From the IMG/VR virus record IMGVR_UViG_3300037455_000100, positions 39,305 through 103,304 of that record: a DNA stretch of 64,000 nucleotides. The stretch is one strand, 5' to 3'. The notes beneath the pieces were generated by a model that was given only the letters and a program-made list of their open reading frames with translations, was not told the DNA's origin and ran no database searches. This DNA comes from a virus. Taxonomy: Duplodnaviria; Caudoviricetes. A program made the position numbers and the translations under genes. Shown here piece after piece: positions 7,615 to 41,132 of the stretch (position 1 is the first letter of the stretch; every line of letters starts with the position of its first letter).

Positions 7615-8061
7615 ATGGAGAAAGTAATTACTGAATTAAAACGAACCGCTGCCAATATACCTTATATAACAGTAAAACATAATAATGTTGAATTTAACTT
7701 TATTGTAGATAGTGGATGTACTATATCATGTATTGATGAAAATGTGTTAGATTTATTAGTACATACAGATACAGGAGAATTATCTGATGGAGTATTATTT
7801 GCTAACGGTGAAGGTACTAAAACTAATAAAATAATAAAATTATCTTTTAAATTAAACGATAAAGAATTTACTGAGACATTTAATGCATTAGATTTTTATA
7901 GTATGACCAAACAAGTTAAAGATAATTTTGGTATTACTGTTAGAGGATTACTTGGTAGTGAATTTTTATATAAAAATAAACTTATATTAGATTTTGATGA
8001 ATCTATTATCAAATATAGAGACAATAACCAATTAGAGTTGAATTTAAATGAACAGTCATGA
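7615..8061 (+). CDS. Retropepsin-like aspartic protease
   Basis: FIVDSGCTIS catalytic D-S-G, flap-like ANG, and GLLGSEFL motif. Confidence 0.8.
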   Translation: MEKVITELKRTAANIPYITVKHNNVEFNFIVDSGCTISCIDENVLDLLVHTDTGELSDGVLFANGEGTKTNKIIKLSFKLNDKEFTETFNALDFYSMTKQVKDNFGITVRGLLGSEFLYKNKLILDFDESIIKYRDNNQLELNLNEQS

Positions 8062-9263
8062 TTTACTTGGTATCATTACAACAAAGAATACATTCAGATG
8101 AGATAACTTTAATATCTGTAGAAGAATCTTTAAAACTTTTAAGTTCTTTAACCGTAGTAGGATTAGATACTGAAACTAGAGGAATGGACCCTTATACTAA
8201 AGAGTTATTATCTGTGCAACTTGGCTGTAATGATTTCCAAGTAGTCATAGATTGTTCTTCAATAGATATAAAATTTTATAAAGAATATTTAGAATCCGAT
8301 AGACTTTTTATAGGGTGGAATTTAAAATTTGACTTAAAGTTTTTATTTCATAAAAACATTTATCCCAAGAAAGTATATGATGGGTATCTAGCTGAGAAAC
8401 TAATGTGGTTAGGCTATCCAGCTGGTATGCACAGTATGTCTTTGAAATCTGCTGGTGTACAATATTTAGACATTGAATTAGATAAATCTGTACGCGGTAA
8501 AATACAGTGGGCAGGATTAACAGATGATGTTATTATATATGCAGCATACGATGTAAAATATTTGGATGATATACGTCTTAAACAATTAGACTTACTTAAA
8601 GAGAAGGATTTATTAAGAGCAATAGACTGTGAGAATCAGTTTATACTTCCTTTATCTTATTGTGAATATTGTGGTGTTAGATTGGATGTAGACAAATGGA
8701 AAGTTAAAATGCATAAAGATGAAGAAAGAGTTAGTAAAGCCTTAGTTAAGCTTAATGAATGGTTTCTTAAAAATGAGCCAAACTCTTCTTATATAGTAGT
8801 AGACAGACAAGGTGATTTATTCAGTGGGTTTGATTTAACACCTAAAGTAACTATAAATTGGAACAGTGCTAAACAACTTATACCTATTTTTAAAAAGTAT
8901 GGGATAGATGTTACTGTAGAAGATAGAGATAAAGGAGGAACTAAAGACAGTATTGATGCTAAACAATTAGGACCACAAAAAGATAAGTGTGACTTGATAC
9001 CTATATATTTAGACTATAAAGAAGCTGTTAAAGTTACCTCAACTTATGGTAAAAACTTTCTAGACCAAATTAATGTTGACGGTAGAATCCATACAAACTA
9101 TAATCAATTAGGAGCTGATACTACAAGAATAACTTCTGGAGGTAAAGATAAAAGCAATAATATTGATTATGTAAATCTTTTGAATTTACCAGCAGATGCC
9201 GAGACTAGAGCCTGTTTTGTAGCCGAAGAAGGTAATAAATGGATAAGTATTGATTATTCGGGT
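8058..9263 (+). CDS. polA: DNA polymerase family A, exon 1 (3'-5' exonuclease and start of polymerase domain)
   Basis: Exo motifs DTET, NLKFD and YAAYD; TTRITS; ends in motif A DYSG at a U before an in-frame TAG. Confidence 0.92.
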
Positions 9264-9309
9264 TAGCAAATAAATCGCTTATAAATTTGTGTATATGGAT
9301 TATTTTTCT

Positions 9310-9319
9310 TATATTTGCA
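9310..9319 (+). promoter_or_regulatory. Intron-internal promoter for the LAGLIDADG gene
   Basis: TATATTTGCA with TTTG about 25 nt upstream, followed by hairpin CACATTAT-TTA-ATAATGTG (9318-9336) just before the ATG. Confidence 0.7.
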
Positions 9320-9341
9320 CATTATTTAATAATGTGAATAT

Positions 9342-10163
9342 ATGAAAAAATTTAGCAAAGAAACTGAATTAGAAATAGTTAGCCTTTATAATAGAGGCTA
9401 TACTCAAAAGGAAATTGCAGATAAATTGGGAACATTTAATACTTCTATTAGAAGAGTTTTATTACGTTATAATGTATTTTTAAAGGGCAATGACAAACAG
9501 CAGAGATTGTGTAAGCATAATCCTTTTAAAAATAATGATGAATATTCTGAATACTATTTAGGATTACTCTTGACTGATGGCAATATAGACTATAAGAGTA
9601 AAAGAAATAGAATCAGATTATCACTTAACGAAATAGACGGTTATTTAGTAGAAGAGTTTTTAAATTGGTCTGCTCCTGAAGCAAAAGTTACTAAGACTTT
9701 ACAAAAGATAAACAATTCTTATATGTGGAGTGCTGCTATAACTAATAGAGAAGCTTTAGAATGGCTTGAAAGAAAAGCAAGTTTTCATAATAAAAGCTTC
9801 GATGCTAAATTATATACTCCTATAACATACAACATATTAAGAGGAATAATAGATGGTGATGGGGGATTCTACCCTCAAAACAAAAATGCTATTAAAATCT
9901 CTATTTGCGGTAAGTCCTTAGTATTTCTAAAACAAATTCAATTCTTTTTAAACAAAGAAGGCTATCACTCCAGTTTATTTGAGCATAATAATTTATATTA
10001 TATTCAAATAATGAGGGTGGAAGATGTTTTAAAATTAGGCACAAATTTATATGAAAATGCCCATATTTTCTGTAAAAGAAAGTATGAAAAATGGCTCGCC
10101 TTCTATGAAAGTAGAAGGGCAAACACCTTAAATTCAGGGAAAAAGATGGCAATTCAACCCTGA
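9342..10163 (+). CDS. Intron-encoded double-motif LAGLIDADG homing endonuclease with N-terminal HTH
   Basis: YYLGLLLTDGNI and ILRGIIDGDGGF motifs; TQKEIADKLG HTH. Confidence 0.9.
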   Translation: MKKFSKETELEIVSLYNRGYTQKEIADKLGTFNTSIRRVLLRYNVFLKGNDKQQRLCKHNPFKNNDEYSEYYLGLLLTDGNIDYKSKRNRIRLSLNEIDGYLVEEFLNWSAPEAKVTKTLQKINNSYMWSAAITNREALEWLERKASFHNKSFDAKLYTPITYNILRGIIDGDGGFYPQNKNAIKISICGKSLVFLKQIQFFLNKEGYHSSLFEHNNLYYIQIMRVEDVLKLGTNLYENAHIFCKRKYEKWLAFYESRRANTLNSGKKMAIQP

Positions 10164-10285
10164 GCGAAACCTACTCACCTTATGGTAATAATTAAAGAAG
10201 TAGGGACGTGCAGAGACTATAATAGGTGCACCTAAACATATTTATTATGCATGGTGAAGGGATAGTCCAACCTACGATTTGGTTG

Positions 10286-10472
10286 CAGGAAACGTACCTT
10301 ATGGCTTCTATAGCTAATGACGAGGCTATTATAGATGAGTTAACAAATGGTAGTGGGGATATTCACAGTCTTACTGCATATATGTCTTATAAAGAAATTC
10401 CTAGGAATACTCCTATTAAGGAGATTAAGAAGAAGTTTCATAATCTTAGACAAGAGGCTAAAGGTATAGAGT
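10286..10472 (+). CDS. polA: DNA polymerase family A, exon 2
   Basis: QETYLMA...GDIHSLTA...RQEAKGIE plus the first base of the Phe codon. Confidence 0.9.
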
Positions 10473-10537
10473 AAACATAAATAGTAAGTTTTGATTATTA
10501 TTATATTTAACTATTTGTCTATTTTAAAAATTAATTG

Positions 10538-10547
10538 TATATTTGCA
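10538..10547 (+). promoter_or_regulatory. Intron-internal promoter for the GIY-YIG gene
   Basis: TATATTTGCA with upstream TTTG. Confidence 0.7.
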
Positions 10548-10565
10548 AAATAAAATTTACAAGCT

Positions 10566-11486
10566 ATGATTATTAAAGTAGATGATTTAGAGTTACTTAA
10601 GAAGAAAGGTATATATAGTATTACTAACATATTAAATAATAAAAAATATATTGGAAGTACTGCTAAATCCTTTCAATCAAGACTTACTCAGCATTTAAGT
10701 AAACTAAGATTACAAAAGCATCATTGTGTACATTTACAATATGCTTGGACTAAATACGGTGAAGATAATTTTATATTCACTATTGAAGAGGTTTTAGATA
10801 ATGTAGATAATTTATTAGATAAGGAAGCTGAATATATAGCTAAGTATGATAGTTATCATTCTGGCTATAATGCTAATCCAAACCCTAATACATCCCCTAT
10901 GTTTAATGTAAATTCTAAAGAGAAAAGTTCTTTAACTCATAAACAACAATGGGAAAATCTACGAAATTCTATGACCGAAGAAGAATATCAGTCTTTTGTT
11001 AAAGATAGGTATGCTTTTCGATATGGAATTTCTCCGGCAAATAAGGGTAAAAAGGCTTCAGAAGAAATTAAAGTTAAAATGAGAAAGCCTAAGGTAAACG
11101 GAGTCACATCAGCCATGAAAGCTGTACATATTAAAAATGCAGAACTTATCAAAGATAAATCTGATTATATTTTAGTTTACGATATAAATAAAAATTGGAT
11201 TAATACTTTTAGGTGTAATTCGGACTTAGTATGGTATAGTAAATCGGAGTTTAATGACCTACCAATGATTCTTAAAAAGAATAGTAGTAGGTTCTTAGAC
11301 CCCTCCAAAATTGCTAACCATATTAAAGACGGAAGACCCTATAAAGGATTATATTTCGTGCGAGCTCCCAAGAGTAGGAAACTCTCTTGTGCAAATGGGA
11401 TGAATTCATGGAAAGCTGAAAAGCCAATCATGAGCCAAGCAGGAAGTACACTTTCTGAAGGTGCAGAGACTACTGGAGAGGTTTAG
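10566..11486 (+). CDS. Intron-encoded GIY-YIG homing endonuclease
   Basis: GIYSITNILNNKKYIGS, conserved R, E and GYN; NUMOD-like basic C-terminal segments. Confidence 0.92.
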   Translation: MIIKVDDLELLKKKGIYSITNILNNKKYIGSTAKSFQSRLTQHLSKLRLQKHHCVHLQYAWTKYGEDNFIFTIEEVLDNVDNLLDKEAEYIAKYDSYHSGYNANPNPNTSPMFNVNSKEKSSLTHKQQWENLRNSMTEEEYQSFVKDRYAFRYGISPANKGKKASEEIKVKMRKPKVNGVTSAMKAVHIKNAELIKDKSDYILVYDINKNWINTFRCNSDLVWYSKSEFNDLPMILKKNSSRFLDPSKIANHIKDGRPYKGLYFVRAPKSRKLSCANGMNSWKAEKPIMSQAGSTLSEGAETTGEV

Positions 11487-11579
11487 CCCTCTTAATAACC
11501 AGCTAGAGCGTCCCACACCTAAACATATTTATTATGCATGGTGATGATATAGTCCAACGGGTGAATGCTGCACCCTATG

Positions 11580-12217
11580 TCGCTATTAATTATGGAGGAG
11601 ATGCTAATACTATCTCTAAAAACAAGGGTATTCCTATAGAAGAGGCTAATACTATCTATAATAGTTATATGGAAGGCTTTAAAGGTCTTAAGAGATATCA
11701 AGACTTTAGAAGAAAAGATTGGTTTGATAAAGGATATATTCTATTAAGTCCTATTACTGGGCACAAAGCTTATATATATGACTGGAAAAAACTTAAAGAG
11801 GATAGAGCCAAAATGTCTGAGGAAGGATTTTGGGATGGATATAAAGATTTAAAAATGTTCTATCCAGAGCATTATAAAGTGCAAATGGTAAGAAATTTCT
11901 TTAAAAGAAAATCTGCTTCAGAGAAACAGTCAATTAATTACCCGATACAAGCAGCTGGCTCATTTTGTTTAAGATTATCCCTTGTATACTTCTTTAATTA
12001 TATTAGACAAAATAATTTATTAGGAAAGGTAAAAATATGTGTAACTCCTTATGATGAAGTTAACTGTGAAGCTCCTGAGAGTATAGCTGATACAGTAGCA
12101 GATGTATTATATAAATGTATGGTAAAAGCAGGCTCTTTCTTTTGTGATAAATGTAAATTAGATGCTGATATAAGCAAGCTAGATGACGGAACGTTACCAA
12201 CATATTGGATTCATTAA
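11580..12217 (+). CDS. polA: DNA polymerase family A, exon 3
   Basis: AINYGG, NYPIQ, motif C variant PYDE. Confidence 0.92.
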
Positions 12218-12229
12218 AAACATATTAAC

Positions 12230-12457
12230 ATGGAAAACAAATTATTTGACAATATAAATAATCCTTCGCATTATTGTGAAGGCAGGCAATATGAGCCTAT
12301 AGCCGTAATTAAAGATTGGAATTTAGATTTCAATCTTGGTAACGTAGTTAAGTATATCTCTAGAGCAGGTAGGAAAAATGATGCTCTAGAAGACCTCAAA
12401 AAAGCTAAATTTTATCTTGATTGGGAGATAGAATACTTAGAAAGTATAACTAAATAG
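12230..12457 (+). CDS. DUF3310 / T7 gp1.7-like protein
   Basis: NPSHY, FNLGNVVKYISRAGRK, EDLKKAKFYL. Confidence 0.85.
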   Translation: MENKLFDNINNPSHYCEGRQYEPIAVIKDWNLDFNLGNVVKYISRAGRKNDALEDLKKAKFYLDWEIEYLESITK

Positions 12458-12509
12458 AAATTTTTTATTATTGATTTGTAACAAGTTATAAGAAGATTTA
12501 AAAATAAAT

Positions 12510-12542
12510 TTTGGTAGTTTAAAAATATGTCATATCTTTGCA
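12510..12542 (+). promoter_or_regulatory. Bacteroidetes sigma-A promoter preceding the non-coding region
   Basis: TTTG (-33, ~12510) and TATCTTTG (-7, 12533-12540). Confidence 0.75.
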
Positions 12543-12545
12543 AAC

Positions 12546-13060
12546 GTAATCAAGACGAAGCTGGTTACAGATAATAAAAATTGAACCCTTATTTACCTGA
12601 TAAGCCTAATGGCATAAAAAACCCCTGTAATCCAGCTTCGTAATATGATTGCAGGGGAATTTTATTTCCATTAGGCTTTTTATTAAGCCAAAGACATATT
12701 AAAATGCTGATTCTTTAACTAGAAATCATGTGGTAAGAGCTGACGTTATAGAGAAGATAAGCCATCAACGCTGAGGTTATCGGTGAATCGAACGTTTACT
12801 CAGTAGGATGTAAAGAACCTCTGAAAGGAAAAGGGATGTACGCACGAACAGAGGCAGCAGGTCAATAAGGGTGCTGGTGCATGAGTGGATTTCATAATGC
12901 CTGAAAGTTGAATAGTGAACCACCATTTTATTCAACGCATGACACACTGAATTATACTGTGTAACAGTTGTCATAGATACCATCCTATGCTCTAAGCTGC
13001 TTTTCTTACAGTTAAAGAAAAGAAGTAGCTGGAGTTTAGGGGATGGTATGCAATCACCTG
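12546..13060 (+). ncRNA. Candidate structured non-coding RNA or cis-regulatory region, family unknown
   Basis: No sizeable + strand ORF, raised GC, consecutive stem-loops with G-U pairs, own promoter. Confidence 0.55.
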
Positions 13061-13113
13061 AATTACCTGTGTAACAATTTAAGAGTTAAACAATTAATAT
13101 AGAATAATATAAC

Positions 13114-13350
13114 ATGATTATAGACACAGATAAGTTTAAATACAAACCGCAAGATGAATTTTGGCTTATGGCTGACAATGAGCCTGCATGTATAAAAATA
13201 CACTCTATAAGCATTCAATATATAAATTGGATAATTGAAAGTGTTGAGGTTTTTTATAGGTGTACTAACTCTAGAACATATACAGAACAATATTTAGATT
13301 CGTTATGTCGTACTAAAGAAGAATTATGTAAGAGAGTTTTTAATGTATAA
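13114..13350 (+). CDS. Hypothetical protein
   Basis: 78 aa ORF with AT-rich leader. Confidence 0.65.
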   Translation: MIIDTDKFKYKPQDEFWLMADNEPACIKIHSISIQYINWIIESVEVFYRCTNSRTYTEQYLDSLCRTKEELCKRVFNV

Positions 13351-13357
13351 TTGATTT

Positions 13358-13501
13358 ATGGATAAAGAAGAATTTATTAAAAACGCTACTCAGATATTAC
13401 AAGACTGTGGTTTAACAGAATCTCAATCTGAAGCACTGGCAAATCTTACTATAACATCTGAAAAGAATAAGATTAAGCAATTGATAGATGATACCGTATA
13501 A
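13358..13501 (+). CDS. Small hypothetical protein (47 aa, MDKEEFIKN...)
   Basis: Not in the track; fills the gap between neighbouring genes. Confidence 0.55.
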   Translation: MDKEEFIKNATQILQDCGLTESQSEALANLTITSEKNKIKQLIDDTV

Positions 13502-13916
13502 TAATATAACAAAGCATGATTTTGTACCTGTAGATGTATGTAAAACTATGCAAGAAGCTGGTGTTCCTACAGATGATGCATATTACTTTATTACTAAGTA
13601 CAGATTCTATAATCATTATGAAATCCATACTAAAGAAGAAGTGTCTAAATTAGTACTACAACCAGATGAAATATACCCTACTTATACTCTATCACAGCTT
13701 TTATATAAATTAGATGAATGGCATCCAGATTATAAAGGACTTACGTTTTATAAAGATGCTCCGTTCTATTTCTTCTTATATGAAGACGCTAAAGATGAAT
13801 CTGAGTTTAGTTTAGTAGCTGATAGTCCTATTGTAGCTGCTGCCTATCTGCTTATAAACTGTGTTAAAGAAGGTTTTGGTTGTGTTAAAAATATAAATAG
13901 TAAATATGAATCATGA
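13488..13916 (+). CDS. Hypothetical protein
   Basis: 142 aa ORF, PTYTLSQLL motif. Confidence 0.7.
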   Translation: MIPYNNITKHDFVPVDVCKTMQEAGVPTDDAYYFITKYRFYNHYEIHTKEEVSKLVLQPDEIYPTYTLSQLLYKLDEWHPDYKGLTFYKDAPFYFFLYEDAKDESEFSLVADSPIVAAAYLLINCVKEGFGCVKNINSKYES

Positions 13917-14073: not shown

Positions 14074-14617
14074 AACGTTAGAGATAAGTGGGTTTCATAG
14101 TGCTTTAGAAGCATTAAGATTACCATATAGTTTACCACCAAGAAGTATAGGTACTAATAGTATAGATTTGTCAGGTAGTGTAAATAATGAAATTGATAAT
14201 GTAATCACTAATATTAATGTTGTATCTGTAAATAAGAAAGACTTAAATTTACTGTCAACATTAGTTAAAAGAGGTCCAGAACACGCTAAAGTACTTAGAG
14301 GTATTGTAGTATATGCTAAAATTACAGCTCCTATCTATATATGGTGTGAAATTGAGACGTACACAGTAGGACATTATAGACTATCAAGTGAATCTACTAT
14401 GCACACTGATTGTAAAGGATTATCTGGAGAAGAACTTCAATTAGCTAAAGCTTCTATTCCTATGGGTAAAGAACTTACTAAAGTAGATATGTTCAATTAC
14501 CAATCCTTACGTAACATTTATTTTCAACGTAGAAATCACAGATTACCTGAATGGCATGAATTCTGTGATTATATTACTACACTTCCTTATGCAAAAGAAC
14601 TAATAACTATAGAATAA
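14063..14617 (+). CDS. Divergent ThyX-like (Thy1-fold) protein
   Basis: H.K.LR, APIYIW, SSESTMH, NYQSLRNIYFQRRNHRLPEW. ATG at 14063 preferred. Confidence 0.6.
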   Translation: MKIKTLEISGFHSALEALRLPYSLPPRSIGTNSIDLSGSVNNEIDNVITNINVVSVNKKDLNLLSTLVKRGPEHAKVLRGIVVYAKITAPIYIWCEIETYTVGHYRLSSESTMHTDCKGLSGEELQLAKASIPMGKELTKVDMFNYQSLRNIYFQRRNHRLPEWHEFCDYITTLPYAKELITIE

Positions 14618-14618
14618 T

Positions 14619-15077
14619 ATGAGTTTAGATGTTTACGCTAAAATAGATGATAGGAAGATATTAGAAGGTAAACAGTATGGTACTTCGTATTATTATTGGA
14701 GTAGAGACGAAAGAGAAACTATTCAATATTTAACAGATACTGTATTATGGATTAATATAACACATAATCTTGGTGATATGGCATCCCATGTACCAATAGA
14801 GTTTTATGATGATTGTGGTAATTATTATAAAACTGATTTATATCATATAATGTGGAGACCAGAAGAAGTGTTTGTTAATAAAGAGAACATTAAACTAGCT
14901 GATGTTAGAGAGCCAATTGAAATAGGATTAAAATATGTACTATCAAACGAAGAAGAGTTAAGTAAATATAATCCTGAGAATGGTTGGGGTCATTATGATA
15001 ATTTCGTATATTGTTTGCCTGAGTATATCAGAGCTTGTTATAAATATCCTAACGCAACAATTACAATTAGCAGATAG
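14619..15077 (+). CDS. Hypothetical phage protein
   Basis: MSLDV, NITHNL, YNPENGWG motifs. Confidence 0.7.
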   Translation: MSLDVYAKIDDRKILEGKQYGTSYYYWSRDERETIQYLTDTVLWINITHNLGDMASHVPIEFYDDCGNYYKTDLYHIMWRPEEVFVNKENIKLADVREPIEIGLKYVLSNEEELSKYNPENGWGHYDNFVYCLPEYIRACYKYPNATITISR

Positions 15078-15097
15078 TTAAGTCTAATTTATGTGAA

Positions 15098-15132
15098 GGT
15101 TATACTCTATATGGGTATAACCTATTTTTTTT
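15098..15132 (+). terminator. Intrinsic terminator
   Basis: GGTTATACTC-TATAT-GGGTATAACC followed by a T-run. Confidence 0.8.
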
Positions 15133-15148
15133 ATTAATATTAAAAGTT

Positions 15149-15430
15149 ATGGAATACTTACAATTTCCTTTTGTAGAATTTAAATATAAGAATAGAAAAT
15201 ATGTATATCCTATAAATTATTCAGACCTTACATTCCAAGACGATAATGATGACTGGTGGGATATATGGCTTAAAGTTGGTAAGCGTGTGTATCAGATATG
15301 TGGAAAATATGAAGATGGTATAAGGTATATTGATGATATTATAATGTATGTATATAATAGTGATGACGATTTGACTGATGAAAATAGAATAGATACAATA
15401 ACTGATTGTAGAATAATATATGATAAATAA
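15149..15430 (+). CDS. Hypothetical acidic protein
   Basis: 93 aa ORF. Confidence 0.65.
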   Translation: MEYLQFPFVEFKYKNRKYVYPINYSDLTFQDDNDDWWDIWLKVGKRVYQICGKYEDGIRYIDDIIMYVYNSDDDLTDENRIDTITDCRIIYDK

Positions 15431-15542: not shown

Positions 15543-18500
15543 ATGATACACTGTATAAGTAAGAATAGTATTTATAATTCTGAAGATTTAGAACAGTTTA
15601 ATAAGATTCAAGAGTATTTTAATTGGTCTGATAGTGTTGCTGAAGCTAAAATAGGAACTTGGATGTCTATACACAATACTGCTGAATTTCCTACTATAGA
15701 CCAAATGAAATATTATATAGAAGATAGTGCTAGAAAACAATCTGAGAAGAATGGTTATACTACTGAAATGCAACAAATAAAAGACCAAGCCGTTACTGAT
15801 GGTACTTTTATGAAAGCGCCTAATGGCAAACCTACTAATCTTAATGAAAGACAATGGTTACAAGTTAGAACTAAAGCTTTTAAAGAATGGTTTGGTGATT
15901 GGGAAAGTTTAGCAGAAAGTCATTTAAATACTTTAGAAATACTCAATGAAGACGGTAGTATTAATTTTGATAAATTAGAAGAACTATCTGATGAATATTT
16001 CAAAAATGCTGATGAAAGTTTATTCAATAAAGGTCGTAAAACATTAAGAGAAAGACAAGAACATCACAAAGGAGAAAATAACACTTTAGAACATATACAA
16101 AATGTAGTAAAATCAGCACAACAATCTAATATTTCTGATAGTCTTAAACAGCATGTCGTTATAGCAGCTGCATTACATGATTTAGCAAAACCATTTCATG
16201 CTGGAAATAAACATGGTTTTCAAAGTGAAGGATTACTTAATAAGATATTTAAAGGTAAAGTAAGTGGTCTTGCTAGATTTGCTATAGCACATCACATGAT
16301 GACTATAGAAGAAGGACAAGAATTTACTAAAGAAGACGCTGAAAGAATTGTAAATGATGCTATAAATAGAAATTTAGATATTAATGAAGCAATAGACGTA
16401 TTAATAGCATTGCATATAGCTGATATTACAAGAGGAAGAAATCTTGAAGATATTGATGAGTATTCTAATAAATCTATACGTGAGTTTATTAATAATGAAG
16501 TTGAAAATAAAAGACAATTACTTAAAGAAGCTGCAAATACTAAAGAAGTTAATAGCGTTTCTAAAGTAGTTGATAAAAATGGCGAGCCTTTGGTGGTTTA
16601 TCATGGAAGTAATAAAAAGTTTTCTGAATTTGCAAAAGGAATTGCTATTTACACTACTAGCATAGAAATGGCAAATTCTTATTACTATAGTGAAATAAAC
16701 GCTGAAGAAGATTCTGAATTATTTTATTATAATGGTAAAGAAGAAGATTATGGTCTTGCTAGAGAAGGAGATTATGAACGTGCTTTGTTATTCTTAAATC
16801 AAGATAAAGAATTTCTACAACACTTATACTTTACAAATCCTAATGAAGTACCTAAAATACAAGATGACTTTGAAAATTTTATAGGACAAAACTATCCTGA
16901 ATATGCTATTGTTGAAACAGAGGATAAAGAACATTTAGGAACTGTTTATGGTGTGCTTTATAACAAAATACCAAAAGATAGATACAAAGAAATAGCTAAC
17001 GCTTTTGCTGAAAGTCAACATCCTTCTAATCCTGTTGATTATTATTATAATAAAATTACTGGAAAAAATTATGATTTATTTAATAATATAAAAAACCCAT
17101 TAATAGTTGATGCTGAAGATAAATGGTGGGATGAAATCTATTTTAACGGAGAACTACTACAGTCTACTAGAGATATAGAAGAGTATGCTAGAAAACATGG
17201 TTATGACGGCTTTATAGTATATAATGTAAAAGATTATGGTGGATATTCATTAGAAGAAAATTATGTTGGTTCTCAAAACATTTATGTTGCATTTAATCCT
17301 AATCAAACCAAATCTGCTACTGATAATATAGGTACTTTTAGTAAAGAAGATGATAATATTTATAAAAGTGAAGATTTTTCTAAAAAATTAAAATCTTATA
17401 CAGAGCGTTGGACGACTGAATTACAAGAATTAATTGATATAAATCCAGATAGAGCAAATGCTGTCGTAGCGGATTTTAATGAAAAACATTTTAATGTTAA
17501 TTTTGGAGTATACAATGGTAAGGTAACTGATAAAAATTTAAAAATAGATAATATTTCTATTGATAATCCAGAAGCTATTTTACAACATTTTAAAAATAAA
17601 GCCAAAAGTAAAGAGATTGAAAATATTATTTTTAATACTGTTTATGAAAGTCTTATAGGTGATACGATTAGTAAATCATCTAATGCTCATTTAAAACATA
17701 TATTTAATAGTATACGTAATAAGTTTGTTAAAAATGGTATAGAATTTTCCTTTGAATATAACACCTCTATAGAAAGTTCAATGGCTTTTCAGTGGAGAGA
17801 AGGTAAACCTGTAATATTTATAAATCCGAATAATTTAAGAGCAGAATTAACACTTTCCGATAATCCTTTAGAAAGATATACAGAACTTATAATTCACGAA
17901 TTAACTCACGGATTAATGTCTAGTTTGTTGGAAATTAACGAAGAAGATATAAAGAATTTATCACCTGAAGCACAAAAATGTTATAATGATATCTACGATT
18001 TATATAACTCTATAAAAGATAAATTACCAGAGAGTTATGGAAAAACAACTATCCACGAATTTATATCTGAGGCTCTTTCTAATAAAGAGTTTCAACTAGA
18101 ATTAGCTAAAATTAAATATGATAATACTAAATCTTTATTAGATAGATTTATAGAAAAATTCGTTAAAATTGTTTCTGAGTATTTAGGTATTGATATAAAA
18201 GATTCAGCATTAGAAAAAGTATTACAAATAACTTCTAATTTTACACATACTGAAGATAGTTTAGAATTAATCAATTTTTTATCTGATAACAACTCCATTT
18301 ATAATTCACAAACTATTATAAATCCTATATTTAAAGAAGAGTCTTCTAGTGGATATAGAGAGAGAACTATTAAAAATGCTAAAGCTGATGCTACAATAGC
18401 TTTTGCTGTAGATTTTAACTCTGCTGGTGAAAGACTTACTAAAAAAAGTGTTTTACAACAAAATAAAAAATACATACCTATAGATACTAACAATCCTGAA

Positions 18501-38945: not shown

Positions 38946-41132
38946 TCATCTAGTGACATTCTCTGGAATTGTTTGAATAACATTGTCATTAAACGTTCCA
39001 TACCCTGCACCAATCCACCTAATAATATCATCTATACCTCCTTGTCTATTATCAGTTATACGTGTAGGAAATAATCCAACCGAAGTATTAAAATAATCTT
39101 TATAATTAGCATCTTCTGGATGATTTACAATTCTATTCAACGAAGCTCCCCCTTGTACTGCATCAACTGTTTGACCATATAATCTTAGAGCTGCTCCTAA
39201 TCTATTTGATATCGGGTCTTTAGCGTCACTTAGAAAATTTCCAATTATCGCAGCAGTATTACCACTATTATCTAAAAACTTATTAAATTTTGGATGTGCA
39301 TCTAAATAATTCTCAATAGATTGTTTGTCGTTACTCTCTAATGCTCTGTCTGTAATATATGATATTCCTGTAAGACCAGCGTTTGTATACATTTCATTCT
39401 TAAACATTTGTGGAATTTTAGACCACATTTTTGCTCCAAGTAATCCATATAATATATTTAGATTAATAGTGTTATTCTCCTCAGTAGCATCTTTATCAAA
39501 TTTCTCAACACTCTTCTTTAGTATTTGTTCTCTAGCTATTTCTGATTGACTTTTAGGAGATTTACCAACTTCTACTTCAGGTTCATAGTTATAAGGATTA
39601 TAAACAGTAGCAGTACTAGAAGTTTGTGGAGTAGTGCCTGGAATAGAACCTTTCTTTATCATTAAGTCTCTACCATCTTGCGCTTTATGGCTTAAAGGAT
39701 ATTCAGTTACATAATTACCATTAAAGTTATAATCTAACCAAGGTAACATTAGTTTAGTATCACCTGTATTAGATACACCTAATACTGGATAATTAACACC
39801 TTGCATAGTAATATTATTACTAGGTATAGTAGTTACTTGATGAGGATATTGCCATTGACCGTATGGAGTTATTTTACCAAGAGTACCGCCATTAGCTGCA
39901 TAGTTAGAAGTGTTATCTTGAGTATTATTTTGAGCTACTTCATTAAATAATCTTACCTTATCTTCGTCAGAAATATTGTTCAGATAATTACCTTTAAATA
40001 AATCTTTATGCTCCTTAACCCACTTTAATGTAATCTTTTGCTTAGGATTTAATTTATTTTTATATCTAAACTCTTGTAAAGCACCGTATAACTCTTTCGC
40101 ATTATATTTATTATCTCCAGTTTGGTAGCCCGTAACTTGTGGTATATCTCTATCTTTAAATATCACTTTACGTATATAATCTTCCTGTTGTGTTGGATGT
40201 GATGCGTGTGTAAACTCATGTATCTTTACAGCAGGGTCAACATTCTGTCCAGCAAATACTACAAAATGACTACCTTTGTTATTCCAAGGGTCTGCTTCAA
40301 CATAAGCACCTTTAGTATCATACATATAACTACTTCCTCTACCTATTTCAGTCTTAGGAGTATTAGCAGCATTCTCTATTTGAGCATAAACTAGTTTATT
40401 AACTCTGTTTTGCTCTGGAGTATAACCTTTAAAATACACAAATGGATTAGGTGTGTTATAATAGTCATCCCTATTCCATCCAGCTTCTCTTACATCACCT
40501 ATGTTATTCTTTGGATAATATTTACTATAGTTCCAAGTAGTAGCTCTAGCATTATCTGTTAAAATATCTCTCCTCGACATTAACCAATTCTTCATCCAAT
40601 TGATTTGCTCTTGGTCTTGAGGTCTGTTATTAGTAGGTAATCCGTTATCGGCAGTACCACCATCTTGATATTGGTTAGGAAATCTATTATATATTCTCTG
40701 TTCAGTATAATCACCTTCTCTATTATATATATTAGGATAAGTCTGTCTATTAATTACTGAAGGAGTGAATGTGTCGTTATTATTCCAACTTCCTCCCATA
40801 ACAGGACCACGTGAATATATGGATTCGTTACTGAAAGTAGGATGATTAGGTAATTTATAAGTATCAGGAAAGTGTTGTAAATTACTTAATTGTTTTACAG
40901 CATCATTATAATGATTCTTAAAGTAGGTCTCATAATCATATCCAGCTTTATTATTATCCATTTCAATATCTGGATATTTAGACTGCATTTGAGACTTCCA
41001 CTGTTCAAAAGTTAATTTACCACCTGACTGATTATAATGTGCTTTAATGGTATCTAAGTTATAGATACCATTTTGCACATATAATTTTATTAACTCAGCT
41101 TTTGAGCTTATATCTAAATCATTCCAATCCAT
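38946..41132 (-). CDS. Modular protein with HExxH zincin module and xxGG linkers
   Basis: IHEFTHA...ELY; HFPDTYKLPNHPTFS module; GQW...ITMQGV...EYP module. Confidence 0.65.
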   Translation of the reverse strand: MDWNDLDISSKAELIKLYVQNGIYNLDTIKAHYNQSGGKLTFEQWKSQMQSKYPDIEMDNNKAGYDYETYFKNHYNDAVKQLSNLQHFPDTYKLPNHPTFSNESIYSRGPVMGGSWNNNDTFTPSVINRQTYPNIYNREGDYTEQRIYNRFPNQYQDGGTADNGLPTNNRPQDQEQINWMKNWLMSRRDILTDNARATTWNYSKYYPKNNIGDVREAGWNRDDYYNTPNPFVYFKGYTPEQNRVNKLVYAQIENAANTPKTEIGRGSSYMYDTKGAYVEADPWNNKGSHFVVFAGQNVDPAVKIHEFTHASHPTQQEDYIRKVIFKDRDIPQVTGYQTGDNKYNAKELYGALQEFRYKNKLNPKQKITLKWVKEHKDLFKGNYLNNISDEDKVRLFNEVAQNNTQDNTSNYAANGGTLGKITPYGQWQYPHQVTTIPSNNITMQGVNYPVLGVSNTGDTKLMLPWLDYNFNGNYVTEYPLSHKAQDGRDLMIKKGSIPGTTPQTSSTATVYNPYNYEPEVEVGKSPKSQSEIAREQILKKSVEKFDKDATEENNTINLNILYGLLGAKMWSKIPQMFKNEMYTNAGLTGISYITDRALESNDKQSIENYLDAHPKFNKFLDNSGNTAAIIGNFLSDAKDPISNRLGAALRLYGQTVDAVQGGASLNRIVNHPEDANYKDYFNTSVGLFPTRITDNRQGGIDDIIRWIGAGYGTFNDNVIQTIPENVTR

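Follow-up and report, generated by a model that had tools for sequence, protein, structure and literature searches.

An initial annotation of this DNA had flagged positions 12700-13060 (~360 nt) as a densely structured non-coding element in an otherwise tightly packed genome. The window analysed here, in which all coordinates are given unless stated otherwise, is a stretch of 64,000 nt, from base 39305 to base 103304 of a virus record that is 103,304 bp long and has direct terminal repeats. Giant proteins of the phage match the virion RNA-polymerase block of crAss-like phages, one of its ORFs carries the crAss capsid domain, and all sequencing runs containing the phage sequence are labelled as bovine gut. 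The source of the flagged element, termed W below, is a cattle-gut crAss-like phage. Outside the gap that contains W, the genome is indeed tightly packed, a description that holds within the window. W is located at the end of the replication-gene block, directly after the DNA polymerase gene, and its surroundings are as follows (z-scores, here and below, compare folding energies with those of dinucleotide shuffles, for 120-nt windows and single hairpins).

9342-10163, gene for a LAGLIDADG-like endonuclease in one polymerase intron, with its own host-type promoter at 9286
10566-11486, gene for a GIY-YIG endonuclease in the other polymerase intron, with its own host-type promoter at 10514
12230-12457, DUF3310 gene (75 aa), upstream neighbour of the gap
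12458-13113, ORF-free gap of 656 nt, containing W
12510-12541, plus strand, Bacteroidetes-type host promoter from a pattern scan: TTTG, a 19-nt spacer, TATCTTTG, then CAA
12545-12690, plus strand, bistable leader of ~140 nt (z -5.9)
12777-12983, minus strand, ORF of 68 aa (102 codons from stop to stop), judged spurious
13114-13350, plus strand, g13114, a 78-aa ORFan; first gene after W, in a block that the relative L039 lacks

The family-A DNA polymerase gene (8058-12217) consists of three exons (8058-9266, about 10286-10471 and about 11582-12217) and is interrupted by two group I introns, both endonuclease-bearing. Both of these introns escape the group I model of Rfam, even at E<=10. Like its counterparts in relatives, the DUF3310 gene is intact; the plus strand of its coding region (12240-12440) folds far better than shuffles (z about -4 in 120-nt windows). 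On the other side of the gap, g13114 has no relative in the protein collection searched, and no loci were found in viral contigs for the neighbour genes g13488 and g14021.

W itself extends from about 12690 to 13055 and is non-coding, lineage-specific, accessory DNA. Its local GC content of 0.42-0.47 exceeds both the genome value of 0.313 and that of most other intergenic gaps (0.14-0.29), in line with the GC enrichment reported for the flagged interval, and no sizeable plus-strand ORF was found across 12458-13113, as had also been claimed. About 10 stops are spread across W in the plus frames checked, and codon-position GC is flat in all frames, compared with a GC3 of 0.14-0.25 in real genes of this phage. 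An alternative genetic code was rejected, since every plus frame contains several TAA codons in addition to TAG and TGA. W was likewise rejected as a protein-coding gene or recent pseudogene, as it has no plus-strand ORF, no codon-position bias and no protein homologues in any frame. The flat codon-position GC and the lack of a protein relative in any frame also speak against a decayed coding sequence, which the initial annotation had named as the reading that would speak against an RNA. A flanking direct repeat (TGTAACAA, at 12477 and 13070) was rejected as a target-site duplication, as a repeat of 8 to 12 nt is within chance.

A genuine small protein of 68 aa from the minus strand (12983-12777) is extremely unlikely, even though the open frame of 102 codons includes a hydrophobic C-terminal stretch. 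The length of this frame does not exceed chance (P 0.06), its GC1/2/3 values are flat (0.41/0.36/0.43) and its orientation is opposite to that of all neighbouring genes. The predicted product has no Pfam or PHROG match, its sole match among 1.84 billion representatives is a tandem-repeat artefact, and on three other contigs the ORF was not predicted by gene callers.

Searches for known RNA families and for homologues of W gave a consistent picture. There were zero Rfam 15 matches at or above the gathering threshold in the whole window, so no known family removes the novelty claimed for W, and at E<=10 the only matches were to sub-threshold miRNA and snoRNA hairpins, with no ribozyme family among them. 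The three other contigs that carry the gap are 100% identical over their entire length and are copies of the same phage; therefore, they hold no information on selection or covariation. Relatives were compared in two sets, 12 from IMG/VR (57-72% identity over the polymerase C-terminal exon) and 3 closer ones from ENA/Logan (75-78%), and none of them contains a sequence resembling W. Neither blastn and nhmmer searches of W against 12 + 6 related loci nor BLAST over 10 related phage records returned a match. In blastn searches with the 'distant' settings, a promoter-like stretch of 61 nt in an Elizabethkingia phage was the sole match among GenBank phages, and plasmids gave none. Exact-word scans of viral, metagenome and genome contigs were empty, and a single-sequence covariance model of W recovered only W itself. 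L038:56-68 and 12940-12952 resemble each other over 13 nt, a marginal result (P 0.03). As far as sequence searches can tell, W is found only in this phage among the collections searched.

The presence of two group I introns in the polymerase gene of the same genome, with GC-rich cores that Rfam also misses, raises the question of whether W could be a further group I intron, without an ORF, or a self-cleaving ribozyme of another type, and W is similar to the intron cores in size and GC content. However, the P7 strands AGACTA and ATAGTCC, found in both polymerase introns, occur nowhere in 12458-13113. Furthermore, W has no flanking exons, as the DUF3310 gene is intact and g13114 is an unrelated ORFan, and no ribozyme family was matched even with the permissive cutoff. 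A ribozyme of this kind is therefore very improbable. These results agree with the earlier statement that W shows no tRNA, tmRNA or group I signature: no tRNA or tmRNA was found and the group I P7 motifs are absent.

The predicted transcription start of the unit containing W lies near 12545-12549. The same promoter type precedes both homing-endonuclease genes in the introns and a tRNA pair elsewhere in the genome, and the promoter upstream of W is conserved in the relatives L039 (about 90% nucleotide identity), L033 and L041. The leader that follows is predicted to adopt two folds. In the first, a terminator-type hairpin (12598-12682, 31-bp, interrupted) ends in a U-run; in the second, the first 25 nt pair with the 5' side of that hairpin (12546-12570 with 12625-12652). 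L033 (8076-8226) and L041 (4581-4724) have leaders that agree with it in length and architecture, with stems that share almost no sequence identity, and RNAalifold, applied to these two only, identified 8 compensatory pairs in the terminator hairpin. The place of the leader differs, as it follows the g14021 homologue in L033 and precedes the small-gene operon in L041 and in the window. A leader-pattern scan of viral contigs found nothing. No leader peptide logic was identified, and a 15-codon ORF at 12537 overlaps the promoter. From comparison of these loci, the promoter and the switch-like leader are conserved. The initial annotation had placed a switch upstream of W, and W does lie directly behind a switch-like leader common to three related phages.

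This arrangement resembles terminator/antiterminator leaders such as trp-type attenuators and riboswitch platforms, in which two mutually exclusive folds, including a hairpin that ends in a U-run, likewise lie between the promoter and an operon that is preceded by a long untranslated stretch. Unlike in these systems, W lies after the terminator, and because of this position it cannot sense for the leader terminator. No match to a known aptamer was found.

The folding of W is uneven along its length, and the features considered are the following.

12690-12906, plus strand, 5' part of W; GC 0.41, purines 0.62, no ORF, local stems at chance
12858-12872, plus strand, leader-complementary segment; 14/15 complement to 12585-12599
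12907-12936, plus strand, hairpin H5 (GTTGAATA/TATTCAAC); perfect 8-bp stem plus 3 more pairs, z -3.9
12939-12974, plus strand, hairpin H6 (ATGACA/TGTCAT); z -1.2, not significant alone
12977-13049, plus strand, hairpin H7; 73 nt, 28 pairs with internal loops, z -6.6

All of the stems quoted in the initial annotation, and the 10-nt complement discussed below, are present exactly at the positions given there. The description of W as densely structured and tiled with stems was confirmed for 12905-13050 (z -6.4) and not for 12700-12906, which folds at chance level, although real intron cores of this genome fail the same folding-energy test. The whole of 12700-13060 has a minimum free energy z of -1.67, with 6/100 shuffles folding as well. 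Within 12700-12906, all windows and single hairpins range from z -1.3 to +1; these include 12700-12840 and 12765-12906 (z of about +0.5) and the stems CTGAG/CTCAG (12771-12803, z -0.15), CCTCTG/CAGAGG (12818-12854, z -1.1) and CAGCA/TGCTG (12855-12876, z -1.3), each at chance level. The shuffle test can miss real RNAs, as the cores of the two group I introns also give z near 0.

The last 145 nt of W form genuine RNA-level structure on the plus strand. The predicted folding energy of H7 is -33.8 kcal/mol on the plus strand, where 5 G-U pairs form, compared with -22.9 kcal/mol and no G-U pairs on the minus strand. As the G-U pairs exist only on the plus strand and 11 kcal/mol are lost on the minus strand, H7 is a plus-strand feature at the RNA level and not a DNA palindrome. 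It ends 64 nt before the start codon of g13114, and no U-run or terminator was found 3' of it. In its ~28 bp with internal loops, its location between parts of a transcription unit and its distance shortly upstream of a start codon, H7 is like the RNase III hairpins of phage T7 (R-sites) and of the lambda N leader, a resemblance in shape only.

A long-range pseudoknot had been suggested between TTCTTTAACT (12711) and AGTTAAAGAA (13010), at the tip of H7. As a perfect 10-mer complement occurs in 13% of block shuffles, this pairing does not stand out from chance. A different contact was overlooked at that time. The 14/15 complement between 12585-12599, in the leader, and 12858-12872 is matched in 1% of shuffles (p about 0.01), and this helix closes a multi-branch domain in the full-length minimum-energy fold. 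The fold of the entire 12545-13113 segment, which uses the same long-range helix, has a z of -5.1. No equivalent of this contact was found in L033 or L041. No significant complementarity was found between W and the rest of the phage genome; a perfect 14-nt complement between 12886-12899 and g13488 (13614-13627) has an E value of 0.18.

Relatives reached through the g14021 homologue show what becomes of this position in other phages. In the closest one, L039 (84% on the g14021-homologue protein), the 3' end of the DUF3310 gene is followed by the same start of the intergenic region and by the promoter, and the g13358 homologue starts ~70 nt further on; the leader, W and g13114 (roughly 12545-13335) are missing. 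As this closest relative lacks the leader-W-g13114 block and keeps the promoter, the block is dispensable. L038 encodes a 142-aa protein identical to that of L039, yet has a GC-rich foreign ORF at the slot, and L040 has yet another ORF there. For the L038 ORF, there was no exact record and no tblastn match in phages, and its sequence word was absent from viral contigs; no additional contig was found that continues L038 in the upstream direction. In total, the slot upstream of the g13358 homologue has four contents in four close relatives (L038:1-260, L039:79-235, L040:1-90 and window 12545-13357). As these contents are all different, the position behind the promoter is a fast-turnover cargo slot.

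Such turnover invites the reading that W is inert, a remnant of rapid cargo exchange at a recombination hotspot that consists of decayed or foreign DNA of higher GC content, with hairpins that are incidental or left over from terminators. The differing contents of the slot in all four related contigs agree with this, in particular the difference between L038 and L039 in spite of their identical 142-aa proteins, as do the absence of a homologue of W anywhere searched and the chance-level folding of its 5' 200 nt. However, no frame of W shows coding periodicity or has a protein relative, and H7 is far beyond chance and, through its G-U pairs, specific to the plus strand. The leader complement (p about 0.01) and the tight packing of the genome elsewhere in the window also argue against an inert remnant, which we regard as somewhat unlikely but as the main rival to our preferred interpretation.

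A further element bears on the nature of W. Directly after the leader in L033 (8228-8490) and L041 (4722-4980) lies a 260-nt non-coding element, termed X, which is 78% identical between the two. A covariance model built from L033 and L041 identified a third copy, used as the positive control, in the genome of the present phage but outside the window:

9874-10111 of the genome (G000:C1), equal to L036:2874-3111, minus strand, third copy of X (73.5 bits, E 1e-16)

A TATCTTTGCAA promoter of its own precedes this copy, which lacks a leader and whose terminator consists of a hairpin plus U-run. Across the three copies, both partners differ in 30 of the 56 pairs in 12 helices, and pairing is kept in 99% of cells, compared with 33-45% in slid controls, in an alignment that was fitted to the model and somewhat favours structure. 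X is a well-supported new structured RNA family with members of 240-260 nt. It belongs to no Rfam family, was absent from GenBank phages and 10 more distant records, and a scan of viral contigs for its pattern was empty. In L033, X is followed by a further 900 nt (8500-9410), for the most part poor in ORFs, which include a patch of higher GC content (0.45) and an ORF of 39 aa with a lipoprotein-type signal (LLLASC).

The order in L041 is promoter, leader, X, ~70 nt, and the first small gene of the operon with the g14021 homologue, so X occupies there the exact slot held by W in the window. A structured RNA at the position of W therefore has a precedent backed by covariation. Both elements are non-coding, GC-richer than their flanks, 260-360 nt long and equipped with a host-type promoter. 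They differ in that no similarity of sequence or structure exists between them, and in that X strongly covaries while W is without homologues. With filters off, the best match of the X model to W scored 5.1 bits (E 0.19), so W is not a member of X, and the covariance model of W does not find X.

The precedent of X raises the possibility that W is a stand-alone, trans-acting ncRNA, a non-homologous functional counterpart of X that would be released at or near H7. The promoter-leader module precedes the covariation-supported X in both L033 and L041, X stands apart in the present phage as a unit that has both a promoter and a terminator, tRNA genes are also driven by host-type promoters in this genome, and W is GC-enriched like the intron ribozyme cores. 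Nevertheless, the X model does not match W, no terminator follows H7, no significant complementarity to the rest of the phage genome was found, and W is not conserved. On this evidence, a stand-alone RNA is doubtful. Equally speculative is the broader proposal that the promoter-leader module is a portable cassette for interchangeable ncRNA payloads, of which X would be one and W another, as a new trans-acting RNA (e.g., host-manipulating or anti-defence) gated by the switch and freed at H7.

The initial annotation had also offered a replication origin or primer-RNA template, which in this case would be fired from the upstream promoter as in ColE1 and the R-loop origins of phage T4. In favour of this, W follows the DNA polymerase gene where the replication-gene block ends, and the promoter precedes a stretch whose transcript would be purine-rich; ColE1 RNA II and the T4 origins share with W a promoter some 500 nt ahead of a structured, purine-rich transcript close to replication genes. 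Unlike these origins, W has no skew signal, is dispensable in a close relative and has no origin hallmarks. The GC-skew check that had been proposed shows no turn at the site, as the cumulative skew is monotonic here, with its turning points near 10.5 kb and 70 kb in genome coordinates. No iterons, direct-repeat arrays or AT-rich unwinding element were found, and L039 keeps the promoter and flanks and lacks the whole block with W. Furthermore, the G-U pairs of H7 indicate RNA rather than DNA, and the skew minimum, with its four copies of a 34-nt motif, is a better candidate for a regulatory or origin region. An origin at W is thus highly improbable.

Our preferred interpretation, to which we assign a probability of roughly 40%, is that W serves an accessory operon gated by the switch as its untranslated payload or 5' UTR. 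The unit would run from the promoter through the ~140-nt leader, W and a 64-nt AT-rich spacer to g13114 and further small genes up to g14021. Polymerase that passes the leader would transcribe W as plus-strand RNA. The working part of W would be the three-hairpin block at 12907-13049, above all H7, and the GC- and purine-rich 5' 200 nt would mainly be spacer, with the 15-nt pairing to the leader loop as the one notable contact. Judging from its shape and position, the hairpin block may act in cis on the downstream message, as an RNase III-type processing site or as an element controlling stability or translation. This cis-acting leader reading is weakened by the lack of homologues of W, the chance-level folding of its 5' 200 nt, the lack of the block in L039 and the absence of the leader contact from L033 and L041.

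Two observations are compatible, if weakly, with expression of W. In one bovine-gut metatranscriptome run, 97% of the sampled words of 12200-13400 are present, in contigs only, which could be DNA carry-over. A 1.9-kb contig from another sample, whose library type is not established, ends near the gene boundaries at 12207 and 14081.

W alone is an orphan that offers little to build on yet. More can be gained from its surroundings, and the findings of greater weight concern the conserved bistable leader and the X RNA family. In this clade of rumen and gut crAss-like phages, host-type promoters drive non-coding units, and the conserved leader precedes either X or the unrelated W. If W is a functional RNA, the switch module would carry exchangeable RNA cargo, and phages would have a new means of exchanging RNAs with regulatory or anti-host roles. 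Should W be junk, it records how fast the slot behind the promoter turns over.

Elsewhere in the genome and outside the window, further long ORF-poor gaps lie at G000:C1:11566-13101, 7962-8475 and 14271-15424. Two of these hold tRNA genes (Ile, Asn, Leu and Arg), and a fifth tRNA gene, for Gln, lies at about 15892-15964. For the 1.5-kb gap at G000:C1:11566-13101, no tRNA, Rfam or ORF explanation was found. The four copies of the 34-nt motif (CCAAACAAGTATAAATCAATTTAAT...) are located at G000:C1:10340-11138 (L036:3340-4138), at the cumulative GC-skew minimum and a point of divergent transcription, and could be early promoters of the phage polymerase or origin repeats. Finally, ~2 kb at G000:C1:24621-26780 reach a GC content of 0.69, compared with the genome average of 31%, and could be a foreign insertion or an assembly chimera.
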